From IMG/VR virus record IMGVR_UViG_3300048894_000068, positions 1-42,134 of that record: a DNA stretch of 42,134 nucleotides; one strand, written 5' to 3'. The DNA is from a virus. Taxonomy: Duplodnaviria; Caudoviricetes. The notes under the pieces were generated by a model. The model saw only the letters and a list, made by a program, of their open reading frames with translations. It had not been told where the DNA came from and ran no database searches. The first letter of the stretch is position 1; every line of letters begins with the position of its first letter. The position numbers and the translations under genes are program-made. Below, piece by piece: positions 3,833 through 34,367 of the stretch.

Positions 3833-3988
3833 CTAGTCACCAAAGTCCACCATGAAGGTGCCGCACGCTGGGCAGCACCGTCCGTCCTTGGCCATCCCTT
3901 GGTAGGTTGAATGGGTGCAGGTCTTGCGCGCCTCGCGGAGCCTTTCGGCCTCGCGTTTCAGGGCCGCCTGCCATTCCGCCTCAGCCAT
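3833..3988 (-). CDS. 51-aa Cys-rich microprotein (KTCTH...RCCPACG), probable Zn ribbon
   Basis: Hand-translated; GAGGA RBS; CxH plus CxxC. Confidence 0.6.
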   Translation of the reverse strand: MAEAEWQAALKREAERLREARKTCTHSTYQGMAKDGRCCPACGTFMVDFGD

Positions 3989-4001
3989 CGGGCTATCCTC
4001 G

Positions 4002-4157
4002 TTAACTGTGCTTGTCGATGGTAAGCCGGCTCTCGTGCCAGCCGGATACCTTGCCGCAGATCACGCACTGCGCGCCGATCCATAGCGTCTCTCCGCGCCA
4101 CTCGCTGACCACGACGATAGGCTGCCAGCGCAGCCAGTGACGGAGCCAGTGGAGCAT
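4002..4157 (-). CDS. 51-aa microprotein (MLHWLRHWLRWQP...AQCVICGK), probable Zn-binding
   Basis: Hand-translated; CxxC; tiles with its neighbours without overlap. Confidence 0.55.
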   Translation of the reverse strand: MLHWLRHWLRWQPIVVVSEWRGETLWIGAQCVICGKVSGWHESRLTIDKHS

Positions 4158-6877: not shown

Positions 6878-9407
6878 GGGTTTCCATCCCCGGCGTCGCG
6901 CCGAGCTCATAGGCGTAATCGCCCAGCAGGCCGCCGCCTGGCGCTAAGGCGAAATTCCGCGGCGCGCGATAGCCGGGGAACATCTCCGGCCGCAGCCGGC
7001 CGCTGAACGCCAGCTTCGCGCCGGTCTGCGCCGAGTCCTCCATATGCGGCGCCACCAGCTTGCCGACCCCGAACGGCAGCTCCCTGATGTAGTCGCGCCA
7101 TTGCTGGGCGCGCAGCTGCGCGGTGCCCGAGCTGCCGAGCTGACGTTGTGTCGCCAGCGTGTCGGCCAGCCCGCGCAGCCCGGTCAGGTGCGCCTGGTCC
7201 TCGGCGGTCGGCGCCAGCCGGGCAACCACCGCCGCGTCGTTGCCGGTCATCCCCTCGCGGAATCGCGTCGCCTCGCCCTGCCAGGGCATCGCGTCGGGCG
7301 GCGGCTCCTTGCTGCCGGTCATCAGCCGCTGCAGCCCGGGCCGGCGGATCGCCTGCTGCGCCGCCTTATCGCCGGCGAATTGCCCTTGCAGATGGTCGAG
7401 GATCTGCGGCGTCGCGTCGTGCCCCATGCCGGTCTTGCCGTGCAGCGCGTCGACCACCTGTTGCCCGTCGCGGCCGAGATAGTTGCCGTCCTTATCCTTC
7501 GCCAGGAGGTCTTGCATGAACGGCGCCGCGCGGCTGTCGTCCGGCTTGACGAAACTCATCTGCGTCTCGTGCGCCTTCTGCGCATCGCGCAGCAGCCCGA
7601 GCCGCGACGTGTCGCCCTGCGCCAGGCCGAGCCCCGGCGCGGCGTCGGCGCGCGCGTCGAGCGCCGCCTTGAGTTGGGTGACCAGCCGGTAGTCGGTGCG
7701 GTTGCTCGACCCGCTCGCCAGGCCGCGCTTCACCTGATCGGCGAGATCGCCGATCTCGCGCCGCGCCTGGTCGAATTCGGCGAGGTTGAACCCGCGCGGG
7801 ATCAGCGTGCCGGCCGGCGTCTTGGTGCTGGTCAGGTCGGTCAGCGTGGCCAGCGCCTTCAGCGCGTTCGGCGTCAGCCGTGAATTGGCGCCGGTCGCGA
7901 GATTCGCCGCGTCGCTGAGAATCAGCCGCCCGGCGCCGGGCGCGAAGAACATCCCGCCTTTGCCGAGCGCCGACTCGCCGGCCGGCGTGAAGTCCGTGCC
8001 CAGCTTGTCATAGGCGTCCTTGGTCGCCTGGGTGAGTTGGTCATTCTTCGTGCGGATGGTGGTTTTCAGCGTGTCGCCGAGCCGGCCTTCAGTTTCCGGA
8101 GGCGCACCGGTCATCGTCTCGAGCACGCGGCCCTGCGCGTCGCGCACCTGTTGCAGCTGGGTGGTGCGGTAGCCGGTCGCCTGTGGGGCCGCCGGGCCGA
8201 ACCTCGCCTGGTTCTCTTGATTGAGCAGTGGCTGCTGCTGGGTCCGCACGCCGGTCGACATATCGACGCCATACTGCGCCGACTCGACGTTGGCGCGCGC
8301 CGCCGAGGGCGCGCCCGGCGCCGGCGGGCCGCCCAGTTCGGCGACCTGTTTGCCGGCCGGCCCCATCTTGGTCTGCAGATCCTTCAGTTGCCCGATGGTG
8401 AGCACGCCGGGATCCTTGCCGGCCTGCTGGAATAGCTGCTGCCCGGTGGTGGTCAGCATGTCCTTGGTGACCGGCGCGGTATCCGGCGCCCCGCCGCTAT
8501 CGGCGAGCAGCGTGCCGGCGCCGCTCCAGCGGGTACGCCAGACCTGGGCGAGGTCTTTGATCGCGGCGCCGCCGGCACCGCCAAGGCCGCGCGCCAGCAG
8601 ATCGATCGGATCGGCGCCGCTGCCGCCGCCTTCCGCGCGGATGATCTCGCCCTCGGCACCGCCGGCGCCGACCTGGGCGACGCCGTGCGAGACGGCGCGC
8701 ACCAGACTCGGCACCCAGCCGGCGCCGAGCCGCCCCGCCAGCGCCAGTTCGGGCGCCGCAGCGAACAGCGAGGCCACGCCCGTGTCGCCGATCAGCCCGA
8801 CGATGTCCTGCGAGCGCAATCCCGGCTTGGAGATGTAGAGCCGCGTGCCGTCCGGCTTCTGGATCATCGGATTGCCGCGCGAGTCTTGAATCGCTTTGGC
8901 GCCGGGGTAGGCCTGCAGCGCCAGCGCGGTGAGTTGGTCCGGCCTGGCGTTGAACAGCACCCCGGTGAGGTAGGCCTGCTCGGCGTCGGTCGCCTGCTCG
9001 GTCGGGCCGGAGCCGGAGAAGTCTGATTTCGGGGCGAGCGTGTCGAACAGCGACGGCGTGTCCTGCTCCTCCGGTGGCACCCGCTTGATCAGCGGGGTGA
9101 CCGTGCTGCCGACCGGGGCATTGGTGATCGCCGAGGGCGGCGCCTGCGGCGGCGAGGTCCAGTCGCCGGCGGTGACCTTGTCGACCAGCTTGCCCGGCAG
9201 GTTCCACCAGGCGCGATCCATCACCGCGGGCGGTGCCTGTGGCGCCGGCATGTCCGCGCTGTAGATGCGCTCGAGCTCTTGCGCCTCGGCGTGCTGCTTT
9301 TCGCCGGTCACCGTGGGCGGCATCGCGGCGGGGCCGCCCCCGACATCACCGCCGTAGATCGCCCCGATGTCGTCGGCCGGCGCCGGCGTGCCCGTCCAGT
9401 CGCTCAT
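6864..9407 (-). CDS. Large DNA-ejection (internal virion) protein, P22 gp16 positional analogue
   Basis: 847 aa, Ala/Gly/Gln-rich with hydrophobic Gly-rich segment; position after the other ejection genes. Confidence 0.7.
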   Translation of the reverse strand: MSDWTGTPAPADDIGAIYGGDVGGGPAAMPPTVTGEKQHAEAQELERIYSADMPAPQAPPAVMDRAWWNLPGKLVDKVTAGDWTSPPQAPPSAITNAPVGSTVTPLIKRVPPEEQDTPSLFDTLAPKSDFSGSGPTEQATDAEQAYLTGVLFNARPDQLTALALQAYPGAKAIQDSRGNPMIQKPDGTRLYISKPGLRSQDIVGLIGDTGVASLFAAAPELALAGRLGAGWVPSLVRAVSHGVAQVGAGGAEGEIIRAEGGGSGADPIDLLARGLGGAGGAAIKDLAQVWRTRWSGAGTLLADSGGAPDTAPVTKDMLTTTGQQLFQQAGKDPGVLTIGQLKDLQTKMGPAGKQVAELGGPPAPGAPSAARANVESAQYGVDMSTGVRTQQQPLLNQENQARFGPAAPQATGYRTTQLQQVRDAQGRVLETMTGAPPETEGRLGDTLKTTIRTKNDQLTQATKDAYDKLGTDFTPAGESALGKGGMFFAPGAGRLILSDAANLATGANSRLTPNALKALATLTDLTSTKTPAGTLIPRGFNLAEFDQARREIGDLADQVKRGLASGSSNRTDYRLVTQLKAALDARADAAPGLGLAQGDTSRLGLLRDAQKAHETQMSFVKPDDSRAAPFMQDLLAKDKDGNYLGRDGQQVVDALHGKTGMGHDATPQILDHLQGQFAGDKAAQQAIRRPGLQRLMTGSKEPPPDAMPWQGEATRFREGMTGNDAAVVARLAPTAEDQAHLTGLRGLADTLATQRQLGSSGTAQLRAQQWRDYIRELPFGVGKLVAPHMEDSAQTGAKLAFSGRLRPEMFPGYRAPRNFALAPGGGLLGDYAYELGATPGMETRGRR

Positions 9408-11662
9408 CGCTTGACCGCCAACTCCTTTTCCCAGGTGCCGTCGGGGTGCTGCTTCCAGGCGTAGTAAGGCTGCCCGACCTCGATGCTATCGCGAAACGCC
9501 TTGTGTTCGGCGGCTGGCCGGCTGAAATCCGGCGCCGACTGGATCATCGGCCCGAGGCCGCCCTTCGCCTTCGGCTGGTCCATCGCGTCGTCGACGCCGA
9601 TCAGGTCGCCGTGCTCCTTGCGGTAACGCATCATGTAGTCGTTTTCCTGGGTGACACGCGCCGCGGCATTCTCGAGGAATGCCAGGGCCTTGGTGCGGCC
9701 TTCGGGGGTTTCCGACAGGCTCGGCAGCGCCCGCTGGAAATTCGCCATCTCGGCGGTGCGCAGCGCCCCCGAGCCGGTCGGCCGCATCATCACCGCAACG
9801 TTGTTGGTCAGGCCCGTCAGCAGCTGTGATCCGGTCACCGCCTGCTGCTGCGACGGCGTGGTCCAGCCGAGTTGGTTCAGCCAGCCGGCCATCTCGGGGA
9901 AATGCTGCAGCAGCATCCCACCGGACGGCAGATCCGGCAGCACCGCGCGGATCTGCGACAGGCGGTTGCGCAGCTCGCGCGCGCTGGACGCCGCCTCGGC
10001 GGTCTTTTTCAGCGTGTCGGTGTCGGCGGCCGTTTGCACGCCGGCTGACGTCGTCTGCAGTTGCAGTTTCTGCTCGTGCTCCTTGAGCTTCATCTGCCGC
10101 TGCAGCTCGGCCTCAGCCTCGGCCTGCTTTTGTTGCGCCGCGCGATTCTCGGCGGCCACCTTGAGTTGGTAGTCGACCGCGTCCTTCCGCCTCTGGTCGT
10201 CGAACGCCACCTGGCGGTCGCGCGCTTCCTTGTCGAGCGCGGCGCGCTGCTCGTTGCGCTTCGCCTCGAGCTCCGTGACCTTCTGCGCGGTGTCCTTGTT
10301 CGGGCTGGCCTGCAACGCCTGCACCTGTTGGCGGAATTCCGCCTCGATGCGCGCCCGCTCGGGGGCCAGATCAGCGATCGACGGCGCCGCCATCGGCGGC
10401 AGATCCGGCGGCTTGACCAGCGCCGGCGGCAGGTTCGCCGCCGGCGGTGCGGCCAACCCCGGCGCCGCGGGCGCTGCCGGGGTCGTGGGCGCGGGCGGCG
10501 TGGTGCCCGGGGGCGTCGGCGCCGGCGGCGCGGTAGCGCCTCCAGTGCCCGCCCCAGGCCCGGCAACCTGCACCCGCCCCGGCGCGCCGGCTGCCTGCAG
10601 CCCGGCGATGCGCTGGCCGACCGCGGCGATGCGGGTGCCGTAGCTGTCGGCCTTGCCTTCGGTCGGCACGTTGGGATTGTAGCCCGCCGTGGCCAGCGCA
10701 TCGCCGAGCGCCTTGTGGTCGCCGCTGCGGGTGACGCCCTTGTAGCGGTCGCTTTTCAACAGATCCGTGTAGGCCTTCACGCCGGCCTCCGGCGTGTCGA
10801 ACGCCAGCGGCTTGCCGTCGGCGCCGGTGATGCCGAAGAAATTGTTCTTCTGCGCCGCCGGTGAACGCCCGTAAGCCGTCTCGAGCGCCGCCTGCGAGGT
10901 GATGAAATCCGCCGGCAGGCCGGTGTCCTGCGAGACTTGCTGCGCGATCGGCGCGAATTTCGTCACGAAATCCGCGTCGCTGCCGCCCGCCGAGGCCGGC
11001 GAGCCGCCCGGGGTGAGCGACGGTGCCGGCGAGCCGCCGCCGCCCGCCGCGTCGTCCGCCGCCTTCTTGCCGCCGGCGATCTGATCGCGCAGCAATTTCA
11101 GCTGCTCGAGGCGCGCCTGCGCGGTCAGTCCCTGGATCTGCAGCCCGGCGCGTTTCAGCGCCAACTCGCTCTGCCGCTGCTGGTTGGCGGCCACCAGCTG
11201 CTCCGTCTCGAGCGGCACCTTGCCGGCCGACTCGAGGCCGGCGGCGAGGATCTGCCCGAAATTCCGCGGCGTGTAGGACGGCCCGCTATTCGCCAGCATC
11301 GACAGGCCGAACTGCAGCAGCGCCCGCGTGCCGGCCGAGCGCGACTGCTCGGGAGACAGCCCGGCCAGCGCCGGATCGCCGCCGGCCAGTGCCAGGCCGG
11401 CCTTGCCGACCCAGCCACCGAACCGGTCGAGGAAGCCCGGCCCGTCATCCGGCGCCGCCGCCGCAGGGCCAGGCGCGCCGTCAGGCGGCGCGGCGGGCGC
11501 TGCCGGGGGTGAGGCCGCGGAATCGCTGGCAGGAGCGTCCTGCGCCGTTGTGGCGCCCAGGAACATCTGCGCGACGCGGGGATCGCCGCTCCCCAGCAGC
11601 GCCTGCAGTTGCTGGGCGTTCAGCGTGTCGGCATCGTCGCCCTGATCCAGCAGCCCCGCCAT
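9404..11662 (-). CDS. DNA-ejection protein with GH73 glucosaminidase/FlgJ-like peptidoglycan hydrolase domain
   Basis: FVTKFAPIA...SQAALETAYG...NNFFGI...FDTPEAGVKAY...AGY; start MAGLLDQ at 11662. Confidence 0.8.
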   Translation of the reverse strand: MAGLLDQGDDADTLNAQQLQALLGSGDPRVAQMFLGATTAQDAPASDSAASPPAAPAAPPDGAPGPAAAAPDDGPGFLDRFGGWVGKAGLALAGGDPALAGLSPEQSRSAGTRALLQFGLSMLANSGPSYTPRNFGQILAAGLESAGKVPLETEQLVAANQQRQSELALKRAGLQIQGLTAQARLEQLKLLRDQIAGGKKAADDAAGGGGSPAPSLTPGGSPASAGGSDADFVTKFAPIAQQVSQDTGLPADFITSQAALETAYGRSPAAQKNNFFGITGADGKPLAFDTPEAGVKAYTDLLKSDRYKGVTRSGDHKALGDALATAGYNPNVPTEGKADSYGTRIAAVGQRIAGLQAAGAPGRVQVAGPGAGTGGATAPPAPTPPGTTPPAPTTPAAPAAPGLAAPPAANLPPALVKPPDLPPMAAPSIADLAPERARIEAEFRQQVQALQASPNKDTAQKVTELEAKRNEQRAALDKEARDRQVAFDDQRRKDAVDYQLKVAAENRAAQQKQAEAEAELQRQMKLKEHEQKLQLQTTSAGVQTAADTDTLKKTAEAASSARELRNRLSQIRAVLPDLPSGGMLLQHFPEMAGWLNQLGWTTPSQQQAVTGSQLLTGLTNNVAVMMRPTGSGALRTAEMANFQRALPSLSETPEGRTKALAFLENAAARVTQENDYMMRYRKEHGDLIGVDDAMDQPKAKGGLGPMIQSAPDFSRPAAEHKAFRDSIEVGQPYYAWKQHPDGTWEKELAVKR

Positions 11663-11666
11663 TGCC

Positions 11667-12101
11667 TCACATCCCCAGCAGGCCGCCGCCGGGCCCACGC
11701 GGCGCGTAGGCCTTGCCCGATAATCCCAGTTGCCCGAGCGCCTGCCGGCGGGCCAGCAGCTGCTGCATGATCGCCTGCAGTGACGGCGCCGCCTGCTGCT
11801 GGATCGGCAGCATCGGGATCTGTGGCACCTTCTGCTGGCCCGCCGCCGCTGTGGCCGGATCGCCGAGCTGCTTCTTGATATCGCCGAGCCCACCCTTCAG
11901 CGCGGCGAGCTCCTTGGCGGTGCTGTCGCGGCCCAGCCAGTCGCCGAATTGCTGGCCCCAGGAGCGATCGTCGGGCGAAGTGTTGCCCGCGCCGAACCCG
12001 ATATCTTGCCCGGCGAACTGCGACGTGGCCGGCATCGACGTGTCAGGAAACAGCGGCTGATCGAAATTCAGCAGATCGGATTCAAACTGGCTCCCGCTCA
12101 T
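11667..12101 (-). CDS. Small Gln/Gly-rich virion/ejection protein, 144 aa
   Basis: ATGA-coupled to the upstream stop; ends PGGGLLGM. Confidence 0.6.
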   Translation of the reverse strand: MSGSQFESDLLNFDQPLFPDTSMPATSQFAGQDIGFGAGNTSPDDRSWGQQFGDWLGRDSTAKELAALKGGLGDIKKQLGDPATAAAGQQKVPQIPMLPIQQQAAPSLQAIMQQLLARRQALGQLGLSGKAYAPRGPGGGLLGM

Positions 12102-12853
12102 GCGGCACCTCCCAGCAAGTCGCGCACGCCGCCCATCTCGAGCACCTCCCGCGTCAGCGTGACCAGCGGCTCGTTCAGCTCGCGCACCACCAGCGCCATG
12201 CGCGCGCGGTAGTCGGCATAGAGTCCCGGGTGGAATTCCTTGAGATACGCCGCGCGCCGCTCGCCCCACCAGGCCGGGCAGCACGCGCACTCGGGCGCGT
12301 TGGTGACGTGCTCGTAGATCCGGCACAGCGGCGCGCCGACATCGCGCAGGTAGGCGAACACCTCGGCATGCGACCACTCCTGCAGCGGCAGCCAGAGCTC
12401 GATGCCGTCGGGCGTCGCGCCCGATTCGTAGGATAGGCGTGGCGTGTCGACCCGCTTGCTGCCACGGATCAGCAGCGTGTGGCCGTCATCGCGGATCCGC
12501 CGATAGAGCGGCATCGACAGATTGGCGTGGCAACACTTGTACCGCGGCACCAGCGTGGTGCCCTGCTGGCCGAGCAGGCGGCCCATCGGGTGCTGGCTGT
12601 ACGGGATCAGATCCGACGGCAGGCCGTGCGCCAGGATCCAGCCGGCGACGTCACGCTCGACCCGCACGAAATGCGGGAACATCGTCTCGACGTGGCAGAC
12701 GATCTCCCTCACCTCCGGCAGGAGGTCGCCTGTGTCGAGGTGATAAACCGTCAGACGATCGGCGTGCTCGCGCAGCATGTAGGCGACGGCGAGCGAATCT
12801 TTTCCTCCCGAAACACAAAGCGCCGCCCGGCTGTGGCGATCGAGCGGGCTCAT
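12098..12853 (-). CDS. PAPS/APS-reductase-family PP-loop protein, 251 aa
   Basis: SGGKDS PP-loop, LDTG, CC...CxxC, PLQEWSHAEVFAYL; ATGA coupling at both ends. Confidence 0.85.
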   Translation of the reverse strand: MSPLDRHSRAALCVSGGKDSLAVAYMLREHADRLTVYHLDTGDLLPEVREIVCHVETMFPHFVRVERDVAGWILAHGLPSDLIPYSQHPMGRLLGQQGTTLVPRYKCCHANLSMPLYRRIRDDGHTLLIRGSKRVDTPRLSYESGATPDGIELWLPLQEWSHAEVFAYLRDVGAPLCRIYEHVTNAPECACCPAWWGERRAAYLKEFHPGLYADYRARMALVVRELNEPLVTLTREVLEMGGVRDLLGGAA

Positions 12854-13794
12854 ACGATCGCCGCCACCGAACCGGCGACCGCGGCGGCGGTGCCGATGCC
12901 ACCCATCACCTGGCCGGCGACATTGCTCTGCGGCGGCGGCCCCGTGGTGGTGGTGGTGCTGCCGTGCGGTGTGGTGCCGAGCACCGACTCCAGCACGCCG
13001 AGGCTCTCGGTCGGGTAGTCCCACTGGGTCTGCCAGTTCTGTGCCAGCTGGTCCTGCTCGGCCTGTGTCTGCCCCTGCTCGGCGCGCCCGACCTGCTCGA
13101 GCAGCCCGCCCTCTTTCGCGGTTTCCGCCTGCTGGCCGACCGCGAGCTGCGGCAGCGCGTTGACCGCCCACTCGCCGGCGCCGAGATTCTGCTGCGCGAT
13201 CTGGCCAGCCGCCTGCTGCGCCTGGTTGTAGCCGCTGGACAGCAGCCCGCCGACCAGCTGACCTTCGCCGAGCGCCTCCTGCGACTGCGCGGTGCCCTCC
13301 TGCACGCCGAGGCGCGAGCCGCCGAACGCGCCGACATTGGACGCATTGGCGCGCTGCTGGCCGAGCGACTGCGCGAGCCCCTGGCGCATCTGCGTCACGG
13401 TGGGATCCACCACCGAGGTCAGGTAGGGATTCATCAACGCCTGGGTGTCGGTGTTGATCTGTCCCGTCGTGATCGGCGCGGCGGAATTCAGCAGGCCGCC
13501 ACCGGTGACCGCGCCCTGCGCCGCGGCGAATGCCGGATCGGCCGCGCCCTGCATGTTGCGGATGTTCGTGTAGGCCTGCGTCACGTCGGCGTTCTGCGGC
13601 ACCACCGTGGCGTAGGGGTTCGCCTCGTAGGGCCGATTGGAAATATCCTCGGCGCGCTGCAGCGACGCCTCGCCGGCGGCCTGGATGAATGGCGGCAGCT
13701 GCTGCACCTGGGTGGTGACCTGTGGCTGGCCACCACCGCCGCCGCGGCAAATCGCGAAGTCGGTCGCGTAGGGCGGCCGCCAGAACCCGGTCAT
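12850..13794 (-). CDS. DNA-ejection/pilot protein (P22 gp7-like), 314 aa
   Basis: Short leader then RGGGGGQPQVTTQ, MNPY, GAFGGSR, Gln/Ala-rich body and hydrophobic Gly-rich C-terminus. Confidence 0.75.
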   Translation of the reverse strand: MTGFWRPPYATDFAICRGGGGGQPQVTTQVQQLPPFIQAAGEASLQRAEDISNRPYEANPYATVVPQNADVTQAYTNIRNMQGAADPAFAAAQGAVTGGGLLNSAAPITTGQINTDTQALMNPYLTSVVDPTVTQMRQGLAQSLGQQRANASNVGAFGGSRLGVQEGTAQSQEALGEGQLVGGLLSSGYNQAQQAAGQIAQQNLGAGEWAVNALPQLAVGQQAETAKEGGLLEQVGRAEQGQTQAEQDQLAQNWQTQWDYPTESLGVLESVLGTTPHGSTTTTTGPPPQSNVAGQVMGGIGTAAAVAGSVAAIV

Positions 13795-14174
13795 AGGTGG
13801 CCTCCGTTGCGTCGCGCCAGCGATTTCTGAAACCGCATGCTGACCGGCACCCAGCCGGTCTTGCGGCCGACCCGTCCCCAGGCGCTGCGGCCATGGGTGA
13901 CCATGAACGCGCAGTCGTGTTCGCGCGCGAACGCCTCGATTTCCGGTTCCATCTCGAGGATCTCGGGCAGCCTCCCGGCGCAGGCCACGACATTGCAAAC
14001 GTTCTTTTGCGGGAAACCGAGGATCTCGGTGATCGCCAGCGAGTGCGCGCGGTGGAAGATCCGCACCCGCCCGTCGCGCGCCTGCGCGATCAGGTCGTCG
14101 ATCGTCGCGGTGCCGCCGGCATCGGTGAGTGCCTGGTTGAGCTGTTGCACGAGACGCTGATGTTCCGGCGTCAT
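13791..14174 (-). CDS. GNAT-fold virion assembly protein (P22 gp14/T7 gp13 positional analogue)
   Basis: AGRLPEILEMEPEIEAFAREHDC...GRSAWGRV pattern; lies between nozzle and first ejection gene. Confidence 0.65.
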   Translation of the reverse strand: MTPEHQRLVQQLNQALTDAGGTATIDDLIAQARDGRVRIFHRAHSLAITEILGFPQKNVCNVVACAGRLPEILEMEPEIEAFAREHDCAFMVTHGRSAWGRVGRKTGWVPVSMRFQKSLARRNGGHL

Positions 14175-24019: not shown

Positions 24020-25000
24020 TCATTGGTTTAAATCCCACACACAGGCATGCGCCTTCGGCGCGGTCGGGCGTAGCGTGCCTTCCCACACAATACCTCCCTG
24101 GGTATTATCCCCGGTCTTGGCATAGCTCTCCTCGATCATGTCGCGCGAGGGCAGCGGCGCCAGTTCGAGATAGTCGGGATCCACCAGCTCGAGCACATGC
24201 GCCGGCATGTAGCGATCCGGCACGAGGTCGATCGGCCCGAAATCCGACAGGAACACGCCGACGGCGCCGACGATGGTGATCGGCTGCGGCGAAGTTGCCT
24301 GCACCACATTTTGAGCCACAGTCGGGTTCGACGCCCCGCCCTGCGCCATGTTGGAGAACCAGCGTTTGATGCTGGCCGACATAATCGCGGTGCGCGGCTT
24401 GCCGCCGGAATTCCACGACGCCTGGATCGCGTCCTCGACCATATTGAGGGTGAGATCGCGCAGCGTTCCGGCGGTGTGGCCGTTGGTGCCGTCGCCGGTC
24501 GGGAAGGCACCGGTGCCGGCGCCGACCGAGCCATTGGAACACCATGTCTGGAAGCCGGCCAGCACGCGTGGATCGGCAATAGATTTCACGGTTTCGCCAG
24601 TAATGGTCAGCTCAAGATCGCGCCGCAATTCCATGCCGCGCGCGACGAGCTGCCGATTATATTCCTCGTCCCCAACCTGGTCGACGACCCTCAATGTGTC
24701 CGAAACAGCCACCGTGCGAGCCAAAATCTGGCAGCAATTTCCGAGCCTTACGGGCTTTTTGGCGGGCGACATCGCGGCGGTGAAGCCCTCGGGTTGCGGC
24801 ACGTTAGCGGCAGGATATAATTCCTGAACCAGCCACTCGGTGTTAACTTGCTCCGCTCCAGAAACGGAACACAGAGATACCATGGGTGTATCGGCTTTGT
24901 CGATCTGGTATATTACGTCCGCGAGATCTTCTCTGACGTTCGGCGCGGTCGTTTCGATGTACGTATTCGTCGGCGCAGCCGACATAGTGGGCAATGCCAT
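24020..25000 (-). CDS. Major capsid protein (DUF5309/SU10-like)
   Basis: REDLADVIYQI...TP...EW; RLGNCCQI...V.VS.T; ELRRDLE; SDFG; AKTGD...E.TL; follows the scaffold. Confidence 0.9.
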   Translation of the reverse strand: MALPTMSAAPTNTYIETTAPNVREDLADVIYQIDKADTPMVSLCSVSGAEQVNTEWLVQELYPAANVPQPEGFTAAMSPAKKPVRLGNCCQILARTVAVSDTLRVVDQVGDEEYNRQLVARGMELRRDLELTITGETVKSIADPRVLAGFQTWCSNGSVGAGTGAFPTGDGTNGHTAGTLRDLTLNMVEDAIQASWNSGGKPRTAIMSASIKRWFSNMAQGGASNPTVAQNVVQATSPQPITIVGAVGVFLSDFGPIDLVPDRYMPAHVLELVDPDYLELAPLPSRDMIEESYAKTGDNTQGGIVWEGTLRPTAPKAHACVWDLNQ

Positions 25001-25277
25001 CGCGTGACTCCATCGCAGGCGCGCCTCGGGCGCGCGGTTGTTCCGATTGGGGTCGCGATGGAGACTCCGGAATGATGTGGCGCAATCGGTGGGTGACCTG
25101 GCAGCGCCAGGACTCCGACCCGCATGACATCACCCGCGGTTGGTCACTCCGTCGTCGGTGGGCACGACCGCGCCGCGCTGCTGGGTCACAAGGGACTGCG
25201 CGCGACGACTGCGACCGGCATTGCTGGGTGACGACCCCCTGTGGAGGGAAGAGTCGGGACTGCCATGGCCGGCCGCA
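25001..25277 (-). ncRNA. Structured 5' leader of the capsid gene (repeated-motif hairpins plus RBS pseudoknot)
   Basis: Hairpins at 25210-25277, 25174-25204, 25086-25118 and 25041-25072 share AGU...ACCC(A); 9-bp pairing 25055-25063 with 25008-25016 covers the GGAG. Confidence 0.6.
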
Positions 25278-25282
25278 CCGGC

Positions 25283-25311
25283 ATCTGAACGGGCGCAGCC
25301 GCCGCTGTCAA
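25283..25311 (-). promoter_or_regulatory. Candidate promoter for the capsid leader (TTGACA-N17-TCAGAT)
   Basis: Perfect -35, weak -10; predicted start coincides with the first hairpin (~25277). Confidence 0.45.
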
Positions 25312-25324
25312 GAGTGTCGTGAGG

Positions 25325-27028
25325 TCAGCCGGCGATCGACCATTTCCGGTCGGTGTAGCGATTCGGCGTGGTGTTCGCCGCGATCTGCCCGCGCAGCCAG
25401 GCATTGCAATCGGCGGCACCGACGCAGCCGAGCGTTGCCGCGATTGCCAGCGCGCTCATGGTGTAGCTGGCATAGGTCAGGCCGTCGGCGGCTGGGATCA
25501 CCAGCGGGTCGTCGCACGCCATGTAATCGGGCTGCAGTCGCTGATTGAGCGCCCAGCACTCACCCCAGTCCGCCACATAGGGCGCCTTGTCGGCCTCTCG
25601 CATCGCCATCGTATAAGGGGACGGTTTAGCAGGCCACCAGCCGGACGTGTTGCTGGTCCGCGCGATGCTGTGCTGGATCTTCCAGTCTAAAATCTCCCGC
25701 CAGTCCTCGTGTCCCATCTGCACGACATGGCCGAGCACCGCCGCTTCGAAGTCCTCCATCCATGGTGAGGTGTAGCTGCCGAACGGCAGCGTGCTGGTCG
25801 CCGGCGAGCCGGTCGCGTCCGCAAGGCAATGAAACACCGCGTAGGGCAGCTCGGTGTAAGGCGGCGCGGTTGGATCCACGAACGTGGTCAGCATCCAGTT
25901 CCGCTCGCGATCCAGCCAGTCTTGCCAGTAGGCGCGCGGCTGGATCCAGTCACAGCCAGCCTCCGGTGTCACACGCGCGCAGCGCGCCAGACCCCGCGTC
26001 TGCCAAGCGCACGCTCGAACCGCCTTCCCGATCGAGAATTTTTCGCGGCTCTGCGGCGGCGAGCTGATGATGTCGTAGGTGGACGCGAAATGCTGCTCCT
26101 CGAGAAAATACACATCCCCGGTCAGCAGATAGGCGACGTAACAAAGTGCCGGCGTGTGCGCGACATCCAGCGTCACCGGCGTCGCGATCCAGGGAATGGT
26201 CGGGCCATACAAGGTCGCGCTGGGATGCGTGTTGACGTCGAACACGCCGCCGCCCGTCTCGTTTCGGAAATGCCAGGGAAATGTCCCCGACGCCTCGGCC
26301 TGTGCGAGCAGCGAATCGGCCGAAGCATCGCCGCGCAGGAATTCAGCCTGCGCCTCGGTGAAGAGGCCGATCTCGTCGCGCTCGCCGGTCGACGGCACAT
26401 AGGCGGTCAGGCCCGCCAGATCCATCGGCGCGCTGTAGACGCGCGCCGGCGACAGCGGCCGTGTGGTTGCCAGCGAGGCATCGAAGCGCGGCAGCAGGCC
26501 CTCCGCCTGCAGCTCCTCGATCGTGGCGACGATCGGGCGCGGCGCCGACTGCCAGCGCCAGCGCGAATACCAGTAGTGCGCCGGCACGTCGATCGCGCAG
26601 AGCTGCGTGTCGCCGTCCCAGATGGTCGCGACGTATTCGCCCATGTTGAAGGCCTCGGCGCCGACCGCGGTGTCGCCCAGTTCAAGCACGACCTCGACGC
26701 GCGAGGGGTCGTCACTGTCGTCCGTGTCGCAGCGGAATTGCACCACGAAGCCAGACAGTGCCGAGTTGGTCACGTCGATGCGGTTCTGCACATAGGCGCC
26801 GCGCGGATCGATCCAGTCGCCGCGATCGATGCCGTCAGCCGCGGCGAAGCGGTGATCCGTCCCACCATAGGCGATGGACACCACCAGGCCGGGCGTCGGC
26901 AGCGGCGGCGGCGTCGGCTCGGGCGGCAGCGGCTCCAGCAGCACCACGGCCGTCACTTCGAACGGCGCATATCCCTCGAGCGTGCCGGACATCGTCAGAG
27001 CCAGCTCGATGCTGAGATCGTCGACCAT
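25325..27028 (-). CDS. 567-aa acidic enzyme-like protein, probable alpha/alpha-toroid (polysaccharide lyase/hydrolase-like)
   Basis: TGERDEIG, DVAHTP..Y..YLLTGD..FLEE, VRACAW, SPWMEDF motifs; Pro-rich linker near the N-terminus; GAGGAGG RBS. Confidence 0.55.
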   Translation of the reverse strand: MVDDLSIELALTMSGTLEGYAPFEVTAVVLLEPLPPEPTPPPLPTPGLVVSIAYGGTDHRFAAADGIDRGDWIDPRGAYVQNRIDVTNSALSGFVVQFRCDTDDSDDPSRVEVVLELGDTAVGAEAFNMGEYVATIWDGDTQLCAIDVPAHYWYSRWRWQSAPRPIVATIEELQAEGLLPRFDASLATTRPLSPARVYSAPMDLAGLTAYVPSTGERDEIGLFTEAQAEFLRGDASADSLLAQAEASGTFPWHFRNETGGGVFDVNTHPSATLYGPTIPWIATPVTLDVAHTPALCYVAYLLTGDVYFLEEQHFASTYDIISSPPQSREKFSIGKAVRACAWQTRGLARCARVTPEAGCDWIQPRAYWQDWLDRERNWMLTTFVDPTAPPYTELPYAVFHCLADATGSPATSTLPFGSYTSPWMEDFEAAVLGHVVQMGHEDWREILDWKIQHSIARTSNTSGWWPAKPSPYTMAMREADKAPYVADWGECWALNQRLQPDYMACDDPLVIPAADGLTYASYTMSALAIAATLGCVGAADCNAWLRGQIAANTTPNRYTDRKWSIAG

Positions 27029-28203
27029 CAGCGGCCTCCTCGCCGGCGCGCGTTGAGCAGCTGCACGGCGTTGCGCTGCGTCGGCATCTGGGCGAATCGC
27101 TGCTCGGCGTCGCCGGCCTGCGCGGTGACCGCCTGCGGCGGCGCGCGGCCGCGCTGCACGTTCGGCACCATCGGCGCGTCACTGCGCACCCCGTGCATCA
27201 TGCGGTCGAACGCCATCGCTTTGAACAGCGCCACGATATGCCGCGGCTCATAGATCGATTGCAGCTCGGCGTCGGGGAATCCCTGGGAGCGCCCCCAGCG
27301 GATCATCTCGCTCTGCAATTTGCCCCGCGTGGCCGCGTCGTCCCAGCCCGGCAGCGCCTGCGCCAGTTGTGCGTGCCCCTCGGCGAGGCGCTTGCTGCGC
27401 GCCTGCTCGGTTTCCTGCTGCTGCAGCGCCATCAGGCTGTCCAGCCGCTGGCGTTCCGCCGCCGCCTCTTTCCAGGCCGCATCCTGCCGCTGGTATTCCG
27501 CCGGGTCGGTCGCGGCGAGGCGCTTCCAGTCCGGCTGCTTGCCGAGTTGCTGATCGAGCAGCGCGATCTGCCGCTCGATCTCCGGCACCAGCGCCGGCAG
27601 CATTTGGTCGATCGCCTGGGCGCGCTCGGCGACCTGACGATGCGCCTCGGCGAGCTGCTTGGTCTTGTTGGTGTAGTCCTGCGCCTGGCGCACCGCCGCG
27701 GTGAGCTGCTGCGGCGTGAAATCCAGCGCGCGGCCGTCGATGGTGAGCCGCACCGGGCCACTCAGCTCGGCCGGCACCCCGGGCGGCGCCTGGCCGTGGG
27801 TCGGCGGCTGCGCGCCATTGGCGGCCGGCGCCGGATCCGCGCCATTTGGCGCGCCGGGCGGCGCATTGCGCTGCCGGTAGGCGGAAATCAGCCCGTCGAT
27901 CGGGTCGGCGACCGCCTCGGCCGGCGCGGCATGGCCGTTGGCACCCGCGGCACCGTTGCTGCGCGGCGCGGCGGCCGGTTGTGGGGCCTCGCCGGCCGCC
28001 GGCGCGGTGCGCCGCGGTGCGCGTTCGCCGCCGCGGCGGTTCTCGCCGACGCGTTTGACCGCCTCCTCCAGCGAAATCCCGTCGCGCAGCCGTGGCGACT
28101 GCCCGAGCGGCGCCACCGCCGCCGGTTTGATGTCCGCACCGCTCGGCTGCGGGCCGGGGGGCGGCGCCGGCGCGCCGCCGGTGCCGTTCGGGGCGTCGCT
28201 CAT
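27028..28203 (-). CDS. Capsid scaffolding protein
   Basis: Disordered N-terminus, then V.LTIDG...DYTNKTKQLAE, DW..LA..DPAEY, LPGW, GF...EL..IYE.R; between portal and capsid. Confidence 0.85.
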   Translation of the reverse strand: MSDAPNGTGGAPAPPPGPQPSGADIKPAAVAPLGQSPRLRDGISLEEAVKRVGENRRGGERAPRRTAPAAGEAPQPAAAPRSNGAAGANGHAAPAEAVADPIDGLISAYRQRNAPPGAPNGADPAPAANGAQPPTHGQAPPGVPAELSGPVRLTIDGRALDFTPQQLTAAVRQAQDYTNKTKQLAEAHRQVAERAQAIDQMLPALVPEIERQIALLDQQLGKQPDWKRLAATDPAEYQRQDAAWKEAAAERQRLDSLMALQQQETEQARSKRLAEGHAQLAQALPGWDDAATRGKLQSEMIRWGRSQGFPDAELQSIYEPRHIVALFKAMAFDRMMHGVRSDAPMVPNVQRGRAPPQAVTAQAGDAEQRFAQMPTQRNAVQLLNARRRGGR

Positions 28204-32225: not shown

Positions 32226-33658
32226 TCGGTCCCCGCGATCACCCGGCGCAGCGGGATGCGGGGGTTCAACAGCCCGCCCATGCCGCCCTGCAGCGCCATG
32301 CCGCCGGGGGCAAAGGTCATGATCAACGCGTCCGCCGCGTCGGGCGAGGCGAGGCCACGCGAGCGCATTTGCATTTTCGATTCCACCTGGGCGCGCCCGT
32401 CGGACATGAACGTCAGCCGCGGCCCGGCGAGATCCGCGCGCAGCCTCTCGTCGTAGGGCAGCCGCACGTTGCGCCCCTCGAGCCACTCGCGCGCGCGGAT
32501 CCACAATTCGTCGCGCATCCTGACGAAGCGCCCGGCGGCGCTTGGGGATTCGCCGACGTTGAGCCCGAGCACCGGGAGATTTTGTTCGCTCAGGCGGTCG
32601 ACCACGCCCGAGCCGATGCCGATCACGTCCACCACGATCAGCTGCGGCCGCGCCGGCGAGGCGAGCGAGTCGTATTCCGCCTTCACCGCGCCGGCCAGCG
32701 CCATCGTGTCGACGCCATTCCAGCGCCGCGGCATTTCCGCGACCACGGCACCGCGCCGCTTGACCAGCACGCTGGCATCGGCGCCGTAGCGGGCGACGTC
32801 GAGTCCCCAGATTTCCGGCGCGGTGAGATCGAGCGGCACGTCGCGCGCCATCGCCGCGTCGACCAGCCCGGCGGGAATCACCGTGTCCTCGTCGGCGGTG
32901 GGAAATTCGCCGAGAATTCGCACCCGGTAGGCGTTGGAATCCTCGCCGTAGCGGTTGGCGATCTCCTCGACGAAATCCCGCGACACGCGCGGCGATTCGA
33001 GACACGAAACCCGCATGCAGAACCAGCGGTCGCGCTCGAGCGTATGCACGCGCCAGAAGAATCCCGTCGCCCGGGTTGGGTTCGAGCAGCAGATTGTCAC
33101 CGCGCCCGGCGTGCTCATCGAACCGCCCGCGGCCTCGAACACCTGCTCGGCGACGCCCGACGCCTCGTCGACCACCAGCAGGACATTGTCGCTGTGCAGG
33201 CCCTGCAGCGATTCGGGATTATCCGCGCGCGAGGTGCGCGCGGTGACGAAGCAGGTATCCGGCGAGGCCTTGAGTTTGACGTGGTCGCTGTCGACGTCGA
33301 ATAGCTCCTGCCAGGACTGCGGCAGCAGCCGATAGGTCGCGCGCACGTCGCCCATCAGCGCATCGTGCAGCTGCGGCGCCGAGGGCGCGGTCACGCCGAC
33401 CTTGTAGGGCGCGCGTGTGCAAGTGAACCACACGATGGTCGAGGCCAGCCAGACCCCTTTTCCAACGCCGTGACCGCTGCGCACCGCGATGCGGCGATGG
33501 CCGTGCGCCAGCGCGCGGTTGGCGCGCTCCTGCCACGGGTCGGGCTCTCTGCCCAACACTTCGCGCCAGAACGCGTTCGGCTGGCGGGCATATTGCTGCA
33601 CGCAGATCGCGAACGGGTCACCGGAATCCGCCAGCAGCTCGGCGACCTGCGTCGTCAC
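32222..33658 (-). CDS. terL: Terminase large subunit
   Basis: Walker A SGHGVGKG, Walker B LLVVDEASG, SNPTR, RNase H GLDVARYGAD, SPDAADAL; GTG start coupled to the upstream stop. Confidence 0.95.
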   Translation of the reverse strand: MTTQVAELLADSGDPFAICVQQYARQPNAFWREVLGREPDPWQERANRALAHGHRRIAVRSGHGVGKGVWLASTIVWFTCTRAPYKVGVTAPSAPQLHDALMGDVRATYRLLPQSWQELFDVDSDHVKLKASPDTCFVTARTSRADNPESLQGLHSDNVLLVVDEASGVAEQVFEAAGGSMSTPGAVTICCSNPTRATGFFWRVHTLERDRWFCMRVSCLESPRVSRDFVEEIANRYGEDSNAYRVRILGEFPTADEDTVIPAGLVDAAMARDVPLDLTAPEIWGLDVARYGADASVLVKRRGAVVAEMPRRWNGVDTMALAGAVKAEYDSLASPARPQLIVVDVIGIGSGVVDRLSEQNLPVLGLNVGESPSAAGRFVRMRDELWIRAREWLEGRNVRLPYDERLRADLAGPRLTFMSDGRAQVESKMQMRSRGLASPDAADALIMTFAPGGMALQGGMGGLLNPRIPLRRVIAGTE

Positions 33659-34212
33659 GCGGCGCGCTTCAGGTAGGCGCGCTTGATGTGCGCCGCGCAG
33701 TAGGGCGACAGCCGCGTCGCCGCCGGCGTCGCCGGCACGCGCGGGTCGTCGCAGACCCGCCAGGGATTCTCCGCGATCGGGAACTGGCAGCCATCGCCCG
33801 GCATGGTGTCGAGGCACACGCGGATCGGTTTGGCGACGCGCGCCGCCTCGGCGGCGGCGCGCAGCTGGATCGCCCGGCGGGTCGGTGCGCGCGGCTGCAC
33901 CGGCTTGGCCGCCCGTTTGGGCTTCGCCGGCTTCGGCGTCGACACGACGTGTGGCTTGGCCGGCCGCAGGTTCCGCCGGTGGATGATGCCGGCAATGACG
34001 TTTTTATTGACCCCGAGCGCGGCGCCGACCTGGGCCTGGCTGAGTTTCTGCGCCAGCAGGGCGGCCACCCGCTCGACGAAGCCTGGCGCGTAGGTCGAGC
34101 GGCGCTGGGCGCGCGCAGCGCGCACCAGGCGCTCGCACTCGGGCCCGCAATACGCGCTGCCGCGGCGCGCGTAGCTGGCGCAGCCCCGTCGCCCGCAGAA
34201 CGGCGCTGGCAC
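33655..34212 (-). CDS. gcrA: GcrA-family transcriptional regulator with extra N-terminal Cys cluster
   Basis: LSQAQVGAALGVNKNVIAGIIHR HTH plus CQFPI...C...PYCAAH..RAY C-terminal motif; start uncertain (34212 GTG with GGAG, or 34317). Confidence 0.8.
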   Translation of the reverse strand: MPAPFCGRRGCASYARRGSAYCGPECERLVRAARAQRRSTYAPGFVERVAALLAQKLSQAQVGAALGVNKNVIAGIIHRRNLRPAKPHVVSTPKPAKPKRAAKPVQPRAPTRRAIQLRAAAEAARVAKPIRVCLDTMPGDGCQFPIAENPWRVCDDPRVPATPAATRLSPYCAAHIKRAYLKRAA

Positions 34213-34367
34213 GCTCCCCCGCCCCCTTGCAGGAGCCTTCGAAGAGACGGGTGCGGGCGAAATCAGCACGGCCGGGCTGGCATGGGGTGGCCGGGCCGAC
34301 GCCGGGCGTGGTGCCATCGCGGCCCGGGGGGGGTCGCGGCGCCGCCGGCCTGGGGCGCGGCCGGGCC

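Follow-up and report, generated by a model that had tools for sequence, protein, structure and literature searches.

A conserved structured RNA leader ahead of SU10-type phage capsid genes, with the head scaffolding protein as its candidate ligand

We describe a structured RNA leader directly ahead of the major capsid gene of an SU10-type phage, built around a repeated internal-loop module whose loop letters change together with one segment of the phage's head scaffolding protein. Comparative sequence analysis indicates that this is a real, undescribed structured leader and a variant of protein-sensing translational control. We think that the scaffold probably binds the leader modules. The fuller reading, which we hold with moderate confidence from sequence and folding models, is that of a conserved, covarying structured 5′ leader whose loops are likely docking sites for the scaffold and in which binding would raise capsid translation. 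More tentatively, the segment before the DYTxKT motif of SU10-type scaffolds might be an unrecognised sequence-specific RNA-binding domain with a code at residue 172 (R/D for CCCA loops, L/G/S for CCAA, A for UGUC). It might belong to an ON switch driven by protein, in which free scaffold is counted and capsid translation released accordingly; natural variants of the domain might form orthogonal protein-RNA pairs.

The balance between capsid and scaffold and the recognition of RNA by scaffolds have one genetic precedent, in phage P22, and the literature that we searched held no description of an RNA site or RNA-binding domain for it. The leader offers a defined RNA module, a candidate binding segment, one specificity residue and a predicted direction of control. 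If the proposal is true, a structural chaperone gains an RNA-binding regulatory role, and natural orthogonal protein-RNA pairs exist.

The phage and its head genes

Throughout, the window is the whole stretch of DNA analysed, a virus record of 42,134 bases that is complete, with direct terminal repeats at its ends, and has a GC content of 68%. It encodes SU10-type portal, capsid and adaptor proteins, a head scaffold, an integrase and a GcrA-like protein. The GcrA-like gene together with a weak -10 element suggests an alphaproteobacterial host. The leader region is the 311-base gap from an inserted 567-aa gene to the capsid start at 25000. The genes around it are:

24020..25000, minus strand: SU10-type major capsid protein gene (PF17236, phrog_1328), downstream of the leader
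25325..27028, minus strand: 567-aa gene of no known family, between scaffold and leader, given for context
27028..28203, minus strand: head scaffolding protein gene, the putative ligand (phrog_3927 and structural matches to annotated scaffolds)

Searches of the PDB with the scaffold gave no match by sequence and none by fold, Pfam gave sub-threshold matches only, and homology to the P22 scaffold was not detected. The 567-aa gene matches nothing in Pfam or PHROG, and its relatives occupy the same place in loci L005, L232 and L233. The interval from scaffold to leader is an insertion hot spot that spans 208-2273 nt across relatives. The GcrA-like gene (33655-34317, minus strand) precedes the terminase and is present in 16 of 31 related records. 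The late region contains a frame with a PAPS-reductase domain (12098-13993, minus strand) and a glucosaminidase domain (9404-11893, minus strand). Locus L197 carries a Group I intron (RF00028, 69.6 bits) at 3909-4138, inside its capsid gene; the capsid matches of L189, L199, L200 and L203 are about 300 nt longer too, and their frames stop near residue 310.

A repeated internal-loop module under selection

The leader has its own promoter and is divided into the following parts:

25306..25311, minus strand: -35 hexamer (TTGACA) of the leader's own sigma-70-type promoter; a TTGAC-like hexamer is found in relatives
25282..25287, minus strand: position of the -10 hexamer, which reads CAGAUG, a weak match; the position is conserved in relatives
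25210..25277, minus strand: hairpin 1 with module 1 (AGU at 25261, ACCCA from 25229)
25171..25204, minus strand: hairpin 2 with module 2 (AGU at 25197, ACCCA from 25186), an extra copy of the window's subgroup
25161..25166, minus strand: conserved CGUGCC element, start of the middle domain
25138..25145, minus strand: loop-bearing half of the split module, loop type CCAA (the 'fifth copy' of the first-pass annotation)
25072..25133, minus strand: long-range stem, 25133-25127 pairing with 25078-25072; lies within the split module and encloses hairpin 3
25086..25118, minus strand: hairpin 3 with module 3 (AGU at 25114, ACCCA from 25094)
25063..25068, minus strand: AGUC half of the split module, the predicted switching strand, whose alternative is a longer anti-RBS helix
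25055..25063, minus strand: anti-SD strand
25019..25035, minus strand: GC-rich hairpin nested within the anti-SD stem
25008..25016, minus strand: SD-containing arm (GGAG at 25011-25008)

A first-pass annotation of this DNA, made from its letters, had placed a TTGACA promoter so that the transcript begins at the base of hairpin 1. Our prediction agrees, with a start near 25276 and a weak -10 match. A TTGAC-like hexamer lies 47-54 nt ahead of a module in 106 of the 117 leaders compared below. Over these 106 the -10 consensus is a TA---T pattern 18 nt downstream of the -35, with T66/A75/T68% at hexamer positions 25-30. The CAGAUG -10 is absent from the list returned by a consensus promoter scan of the window.

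All letters quoted by the first-pass annotation were found on the minus strand. Its hairpins 1-3, with an A / CCA internal loop (S-A-GU opposite AC-CCA-S′), were confirmed by a module search against shuffled sequence: under loose criteria the window's leader yielded 5 raw matches, which represent 3 distinct modules, while none of 2000 shuffles exceeded 4 and 11 of them had 3 or more. The same kind of search over 86 leaders found 216 modules, against 42 ± 7 in shuffles. The fold as a whole is only moderately better than that of shuffles (z = -2.43 for 24995-25278 and -1.56 for the wider 24990-25330), so that the case rests on relatives.

Through capsid homologues (capsid identity 49-100%) 117 distinct leaders were collected, with duplicates dropped only at exact identity, so that row counts include near-identical relatives. 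At least two hairpin modules, each a 1x3 internal loop with AGU opposite AC-CMA, occur in 114 of the 117, and 2-4 modules are typical. Two leaders, those of L159 and L192, are without the standard module and appear to carry further loop variants. Because counts of modules found under a pairing constraint are circular as evidence of covariation, 133 modules were picked by sequence alone instead. The outer flanking pair is Watson-Crick in 119 of them and the inner one in 117, with G-C/C-G swaps, against 65 and 60 under permutation; cross controls give 82 and 83 of 133, showing that relatedness inflates the baseline. RNAalifold applied to 25 two-module leaders returned 26 pairs, 17 with compensatory change, two of these in the SD stem. 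These covarying flanking pairs and compensatory changes across the relatives' leaders bear out the earlier suggestion of selection on RNA structure.

A DNA-pattern search made without reference to the capsid gene returned 358 loci. A looser definition of a module cluster gave many chance matches (184 loci); under the stricter definition 63 loci have at least two strict modules, and 62 of these sit directly ahead of an SU10 capsid gene. Module density is 5.07 per kb in the 400 nt before the capsid gene versus at most 0.24 elsewhere within 6 kb, and modules number 211, as opposed to 2 on the other strand. The leader keeps to the capsid gene, and its distance from the scaffold gene varies over the range given above; no enrichment of modules was found near the scaffold start, the modules sitting before the capsid gene only. 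In five more distant SU10-type phages (33-40% capsid identity) the scaffold and capsid genes are 9-27 nt apart with no leader between them, which makes the element clade-specific.

Three further observations concern the layout of the leader. The CGUG(CC) element ranks with its best-conserved letters, but the consensus folds give it no covarying partner. In 72 of 117 leaders the 3′ domain encloses a GAACC/GGUUC stem, which is degenerate in the window and could be a second protein site. The leaders of L147, L225, L227-L229, L232, L233, L236, L237 and L240 keep the modules and have a longer, different 3′ domain instead of the usual anti-SD junction.

A split module in place of a fourth hairpin

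The first-pass annotation also drew a fourth hairpin, whose loop was to pair with the Shine-Dalgarno arm as an RBS-occluding pseudoknot, and a minimal fifth copy of the motif. Hairpin 4 fails on each count: alone it reaches -6.6 kcal/mol (z -0.31), holding it in the fold costs about 10 kcal/mol (-116.8 versus -126.7/-128.0 for alternatives), and its closing run of at least three pairs is found in 1 of 20 relatives having both halves. The 9-nt complementarity to the SD arm is real (25063-25055 with 25016-25008), and occlusion of the SD is supported. The pseudoknot is not confirmed because hairpin 4, which is unstable and not conserved, is not; the SD stem forms the nested closing helix of a multibranch domain. 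As for the fifth copy, its letters are present; they do not form a stand-alone mini-hairpin, being the 3′ half of a module that pairs over a long range with 25068-25063.

The 5′ arm of the supposed hairpin 4, GGAGUC, thus finds its partner 75 nt upstream, and together they make up a circularly permuted module with hairpin 3 inside it. Of 115 leaders, 49 have both halves of this split module, 55 have neither and 11 have only one. Its flanking pair is Watson-Crick in 49 of 49 (39 G-C, 10 C-G), and the RNAalifold consensus of the window's subgroup recovers the split module unprompted. Its loop type disagrees with that of its own leader in 3 of the 49; in the window the split module is CCAA and the other three modules are CCCA.

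Loop type varies with a segment of the scaffold

Loops of type CCAA predominate among the 117 leaders (67), followed by CCCA (28), UGUC (12) and rarer types. The first and last modules of a leader have the same type in 93 of 95 cases, and the type flips 12-15 times on each of four trees built from scaffold, capsid or loop-masked leader sequences. Such concerted change at separate sites suggests a partner. Conversion of whole modules is disfavoured as its cause, given that 77 of the 93 concordant pairs have different inner hairpins. Block recombination does occur, with leader tracts and scaffold segments exchanged as blocks.

The part of the scaffold gene that co-varies with loop type is:

27619..27768, minus strand: scaffold residues 146-195, before the DYTxKT motif; residue 172 is the codon at 27690-27688

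Structure prediction (pLDDT about 70-80) gives this segment a beta-hairpin at 151-162 together with the beginning of a long helix; a near-invariant DYTxK adjoins it. Residue 172 is R or D in 21 of 21 CCCA leaders, R in 3 of 52 CCAA leaders and A in 11 of 11 UGUC leaders. Independent pairs on the tree of residues 192-391 agree in 8.6 of 9 with none opposed (p 0.004); with added rows the same test gives 6.7 of 7 (p 0.016). The residue and its coding had been picked after seeing the data, and every column was therefore scored alike with the same post hoc coding: residue 172 is the best of 263 scaffold columns (8.63, the next 6.7), and the best of 269 capsid columns scores 3.36. With added rows, four of the top five scaffold columns lie in 150-179. 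Stretches of 35 scaffold residues over 146-195 imply 11 loop-type changes, and all others 15-19, those nearest the leader included; the lack of signal in the scaffold parts nearest the leader argues against simple linkage. Held-out loci that have the segment fit in 14 of 15 cases; many of these loci are closely related to the training set. For UGUC the contrast comprises two independent pairs only and is not significant.

One locus, L533, runs counter to this pattern: its leader is CCAA, yet over 341 residues its scaffold has the same sequence as that of the UGUC-type L529. Recent recombination or a chimeric assembly may account for it, or recognition may be tolerant. A distinct form of the segment, with a one-residue insertion and an 'LRT...RKSADY'-like sequence, is found in L287, L326, L201, L152, L171, L168, L543 and L195. 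These scaffolds are otherwise unrelated and their leaders are always CCCA or UCCA, as if the segment had been exchanged as a block.

The co-variation tests took in the scaffold, the capsid and five neighbouring gene stretches, these last with 2-6 pairs. The capsid protein was rejected as the determinant of CCAA versus CCCA: L301 and L285 have identical capsids and different loop types, and the capsid also fell behind the scaffold in the column scoring. The GcrA-like protein and GANTC sites were set aside, the gene having been found in 16 of the 31 records and most modules not being GANTC. As to a partner in cis, no column or k-mer of the leader outside the loops separated the types as well. 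A small-molecule riboswitch with an invariant pocket is disfavoured, since the loop letters vary in concert within leaders and with the scaffold segment. Of the first proposal of protein- or ligand-sensing control, the protein part finds support and gains in the scaffold a candidate ligand; the small-molecule part is, on the grounds just given, unlikely.

A predicted switch at the ribosome-binding site

The AGUC strand of the split module has a second partner, the spacer between the SD and the start codon. With its own spacer the AGUC linker reaches -8.1 kcal/mol, versus -4.5 for shuffled and -6.6 for foreign spacers (0 of 10,000 permutations, from 30 distinct combinations). When the module is held, the opening energy of the RBS falls in 46 of the 49 split-module leaders and rises in none, the median going from 10.9 to 7.3 kcal/mol, a drop that is partly built in, since holding the module occupies a strand adjacent to the helix. 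The held value is near that of leaders without a split module (7.9). The window's own switch is weak, from 10.9 to 9.3 kcal/mol (1.6), and leaves the SD still largely paired; the capsid gene has the second-highest RBS opening energy of 14 genes in the window. Among the 55 leaders that have no split module, 35 were analysed: the linker again favours its own spacer, though weakly (-6.7 versus -5.2), and an alternative pairing was not found.

Because the split module lowers the opening energy of the RBS, a protein that stabilises it would favour the open state, that is, activation. In the mechanism that we propose, free scaffold would bind the modules through its beta-hairpin/helix segment. Bound scaffold would hold the split module, whose AGUC strand would otherwise lengthen the helix over SD and spacer; with that strand held, the RBS would be easier to open. 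Newly made capsid protein would then draw scaffold into procapsids and the signal would fall, such that capsid output would follow the pool of free scaffold.

Competing explanations

An unlikely reading, though one to be taken seriously, is that the RNA is an assembly platform, on which scaffolds gather near capsid-making ribosomes or procapsids are nucleated while the SD stem sets a fixed rate. It accounts for the co-variation of loop and scaffold equally well, and it suits the presence of at least two modules in 114 of 117 leaders but of the split module in only 49 of 115. It is also in keeping with the relatives that can do without a leader, their scaffold and capsid genes being separated by 9-27 nt. 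A platform leaves unexplained, however, how the AGUC strand comes to match both the other half of its module and the SD spacer, as well as the conserved occlusion of the SD of a gene expected to be highly expressed.

Also unlikely is a protein ligand other than the scaffold, from the phage or its host, or a packing of the loops on one another, with the match to the scaffold arising from recombination and shared descent. The L533 mismatch, the block exchange of leader tracts and scaffold segments, and the limited set of genes covered by the co-variation tests all speak for it. Against it, the signal lies about 650 nt upstream of the scaffold stop, gene parts closer to the leader show none, and the scaffold signal survives independent contrasts. 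The exclusion of the capsid for CCAA versus CCCA, the limited distribution of the GcrA-like gene and the lack, outside the loops, of any leader column or k-mer that separates the types as well count against it too.

That scaffold binding represses capsid translation, for instance by compaction of the leader or by a blocked ribosome standby site, in the manner of the P22 scaffold, whose repression falls on its own gene, seems improbable. The loop/scaffold co-variation would look the same, and the N-terminus of the P22 scaffold is implicated in translational autoregulation in the available text of a preprint (bioRxiv 10.1101/2022.12.13.520362). The effect of holding the split module on RBS opening energy nevertheless has the opposite sign in 46 of 49 leaders, and shutting off the capsid under scaffold excess would be expected to worsen the imbalance.

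It is very improbable that the leader serves autoregulation of the scaffold, as a sink that titrates free scaffold or as a 3′ element that controls the scaffold message on read-through. Its place downstream of the scaffold gene and its co-variation with the scaffold segment would fit, but no modules were found near the scaffold start, the leader has its own promoter, and insertions of up to 2 kb have left its position relative to the capsid start unchanged. It is scarcely credible that the region is a DNA-level repeat or a short stretch of coding sequence, or that its folding is a chance effect of high GC content: the 68% GC and whole-region z of only -1.56 to -2.43 are outweighed by compensatory and G-U-preserving changes, long-range pairs, module lengths that fall in all three frames (123/87/60) and the strand specificity reported above.

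Relation to known RNAs

The leader, which the first-pass annotation did not recognise as a named RNA family, has no counterpart in Rfam 15, which gave 0 matches at the gathering threshold in the window. Only chance matches (E 0.3-0.44) were returned for 24900-25400, and none for the leaders of 9 related loci. GP20-a and GP20-b (RF02991, RF03003), which are in Rfam, match neither the window nor the related leaders. The literature searched, outside which most subscription papers lay, contained no description of the leader.

Free scaffold is the signal of assembly state in P22 autoregulation. The N-terminal part of the P22 scaffold (gene 8) is linked to this translational autoregulation, according to the available text of the preprint cited above (bioRxiv 10.1101/2022.12.13.520362). 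The first-pass annotation had named P22 as a loose precedent, which holds up. The co-variation points to the scaffold as ligand: in both phages a scaffolding protein would be tied to translational control. Unlike in P22, where the scaffold acts on its own gene by repression, the target here would be the capsid gene and the sign predicted by the folding model is activation, and there is a defined repeated RNA module with a candidate specificity residue.

In ribosomal-protein leaders and the coat operators of RNA phages, a protein of the same pathway reads a structured leader and balances subunit supply. The structured 5′ leader read by gp32 of phage T4 is similar, as described in the consulted part of PMC10690425. 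In contrast to these systems, which are mostly autogenous repressors, the scaffold would here regulate a gene other than its own, that of the capsid, through several sites and with an exchange of strands. Like GP20-a and GP20-b, DNAVirus_5700 (Fremin et al. 2023, PMC10690425) is a predicted phage RNA upstream of head genes: it has 91 nt and 4 sequences, is flagged as a terminator and precedes a DUF5309 (SU10-type capsid) gene. On this description it is distinct from our leader, but the two may overlap, and it may bear on novelty.

The module itself is reminiscent of the C-loop, which is defined by two crossing non-Watson-Crick pairs that make two base triads (consulted parts of PMC4551918 and bioRxiv 10.1101/2021.12.02.470923). 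JAR3D accepts CCAAU*AG for this motif (Motif Atlas IL_73276.5), with 0-2 bulged bases on the short strand (PMC4551918, consulted part). C-loops can be protein sites, that of a viroid being bound by Virp1 in the available text of bioRxiv 10.1101/2021.12.02.470923. Shared with the C-loop are the asymmetric 1x3 loop between covarying pairs and the three-base long strand. That strand usually starts with C in C-loops, as it does here in the CCAA, CCCA, CCGA and UCCA types (98 of 117 leaders), whereas the UGUC and UGUA types (14 leaders) have G and are without the first C. The closing pair is here G-C or C-G rather than U-A, and the extra A is invariant rather than variable. In outline, the module would fit a C-loop with an invariant bulged A.
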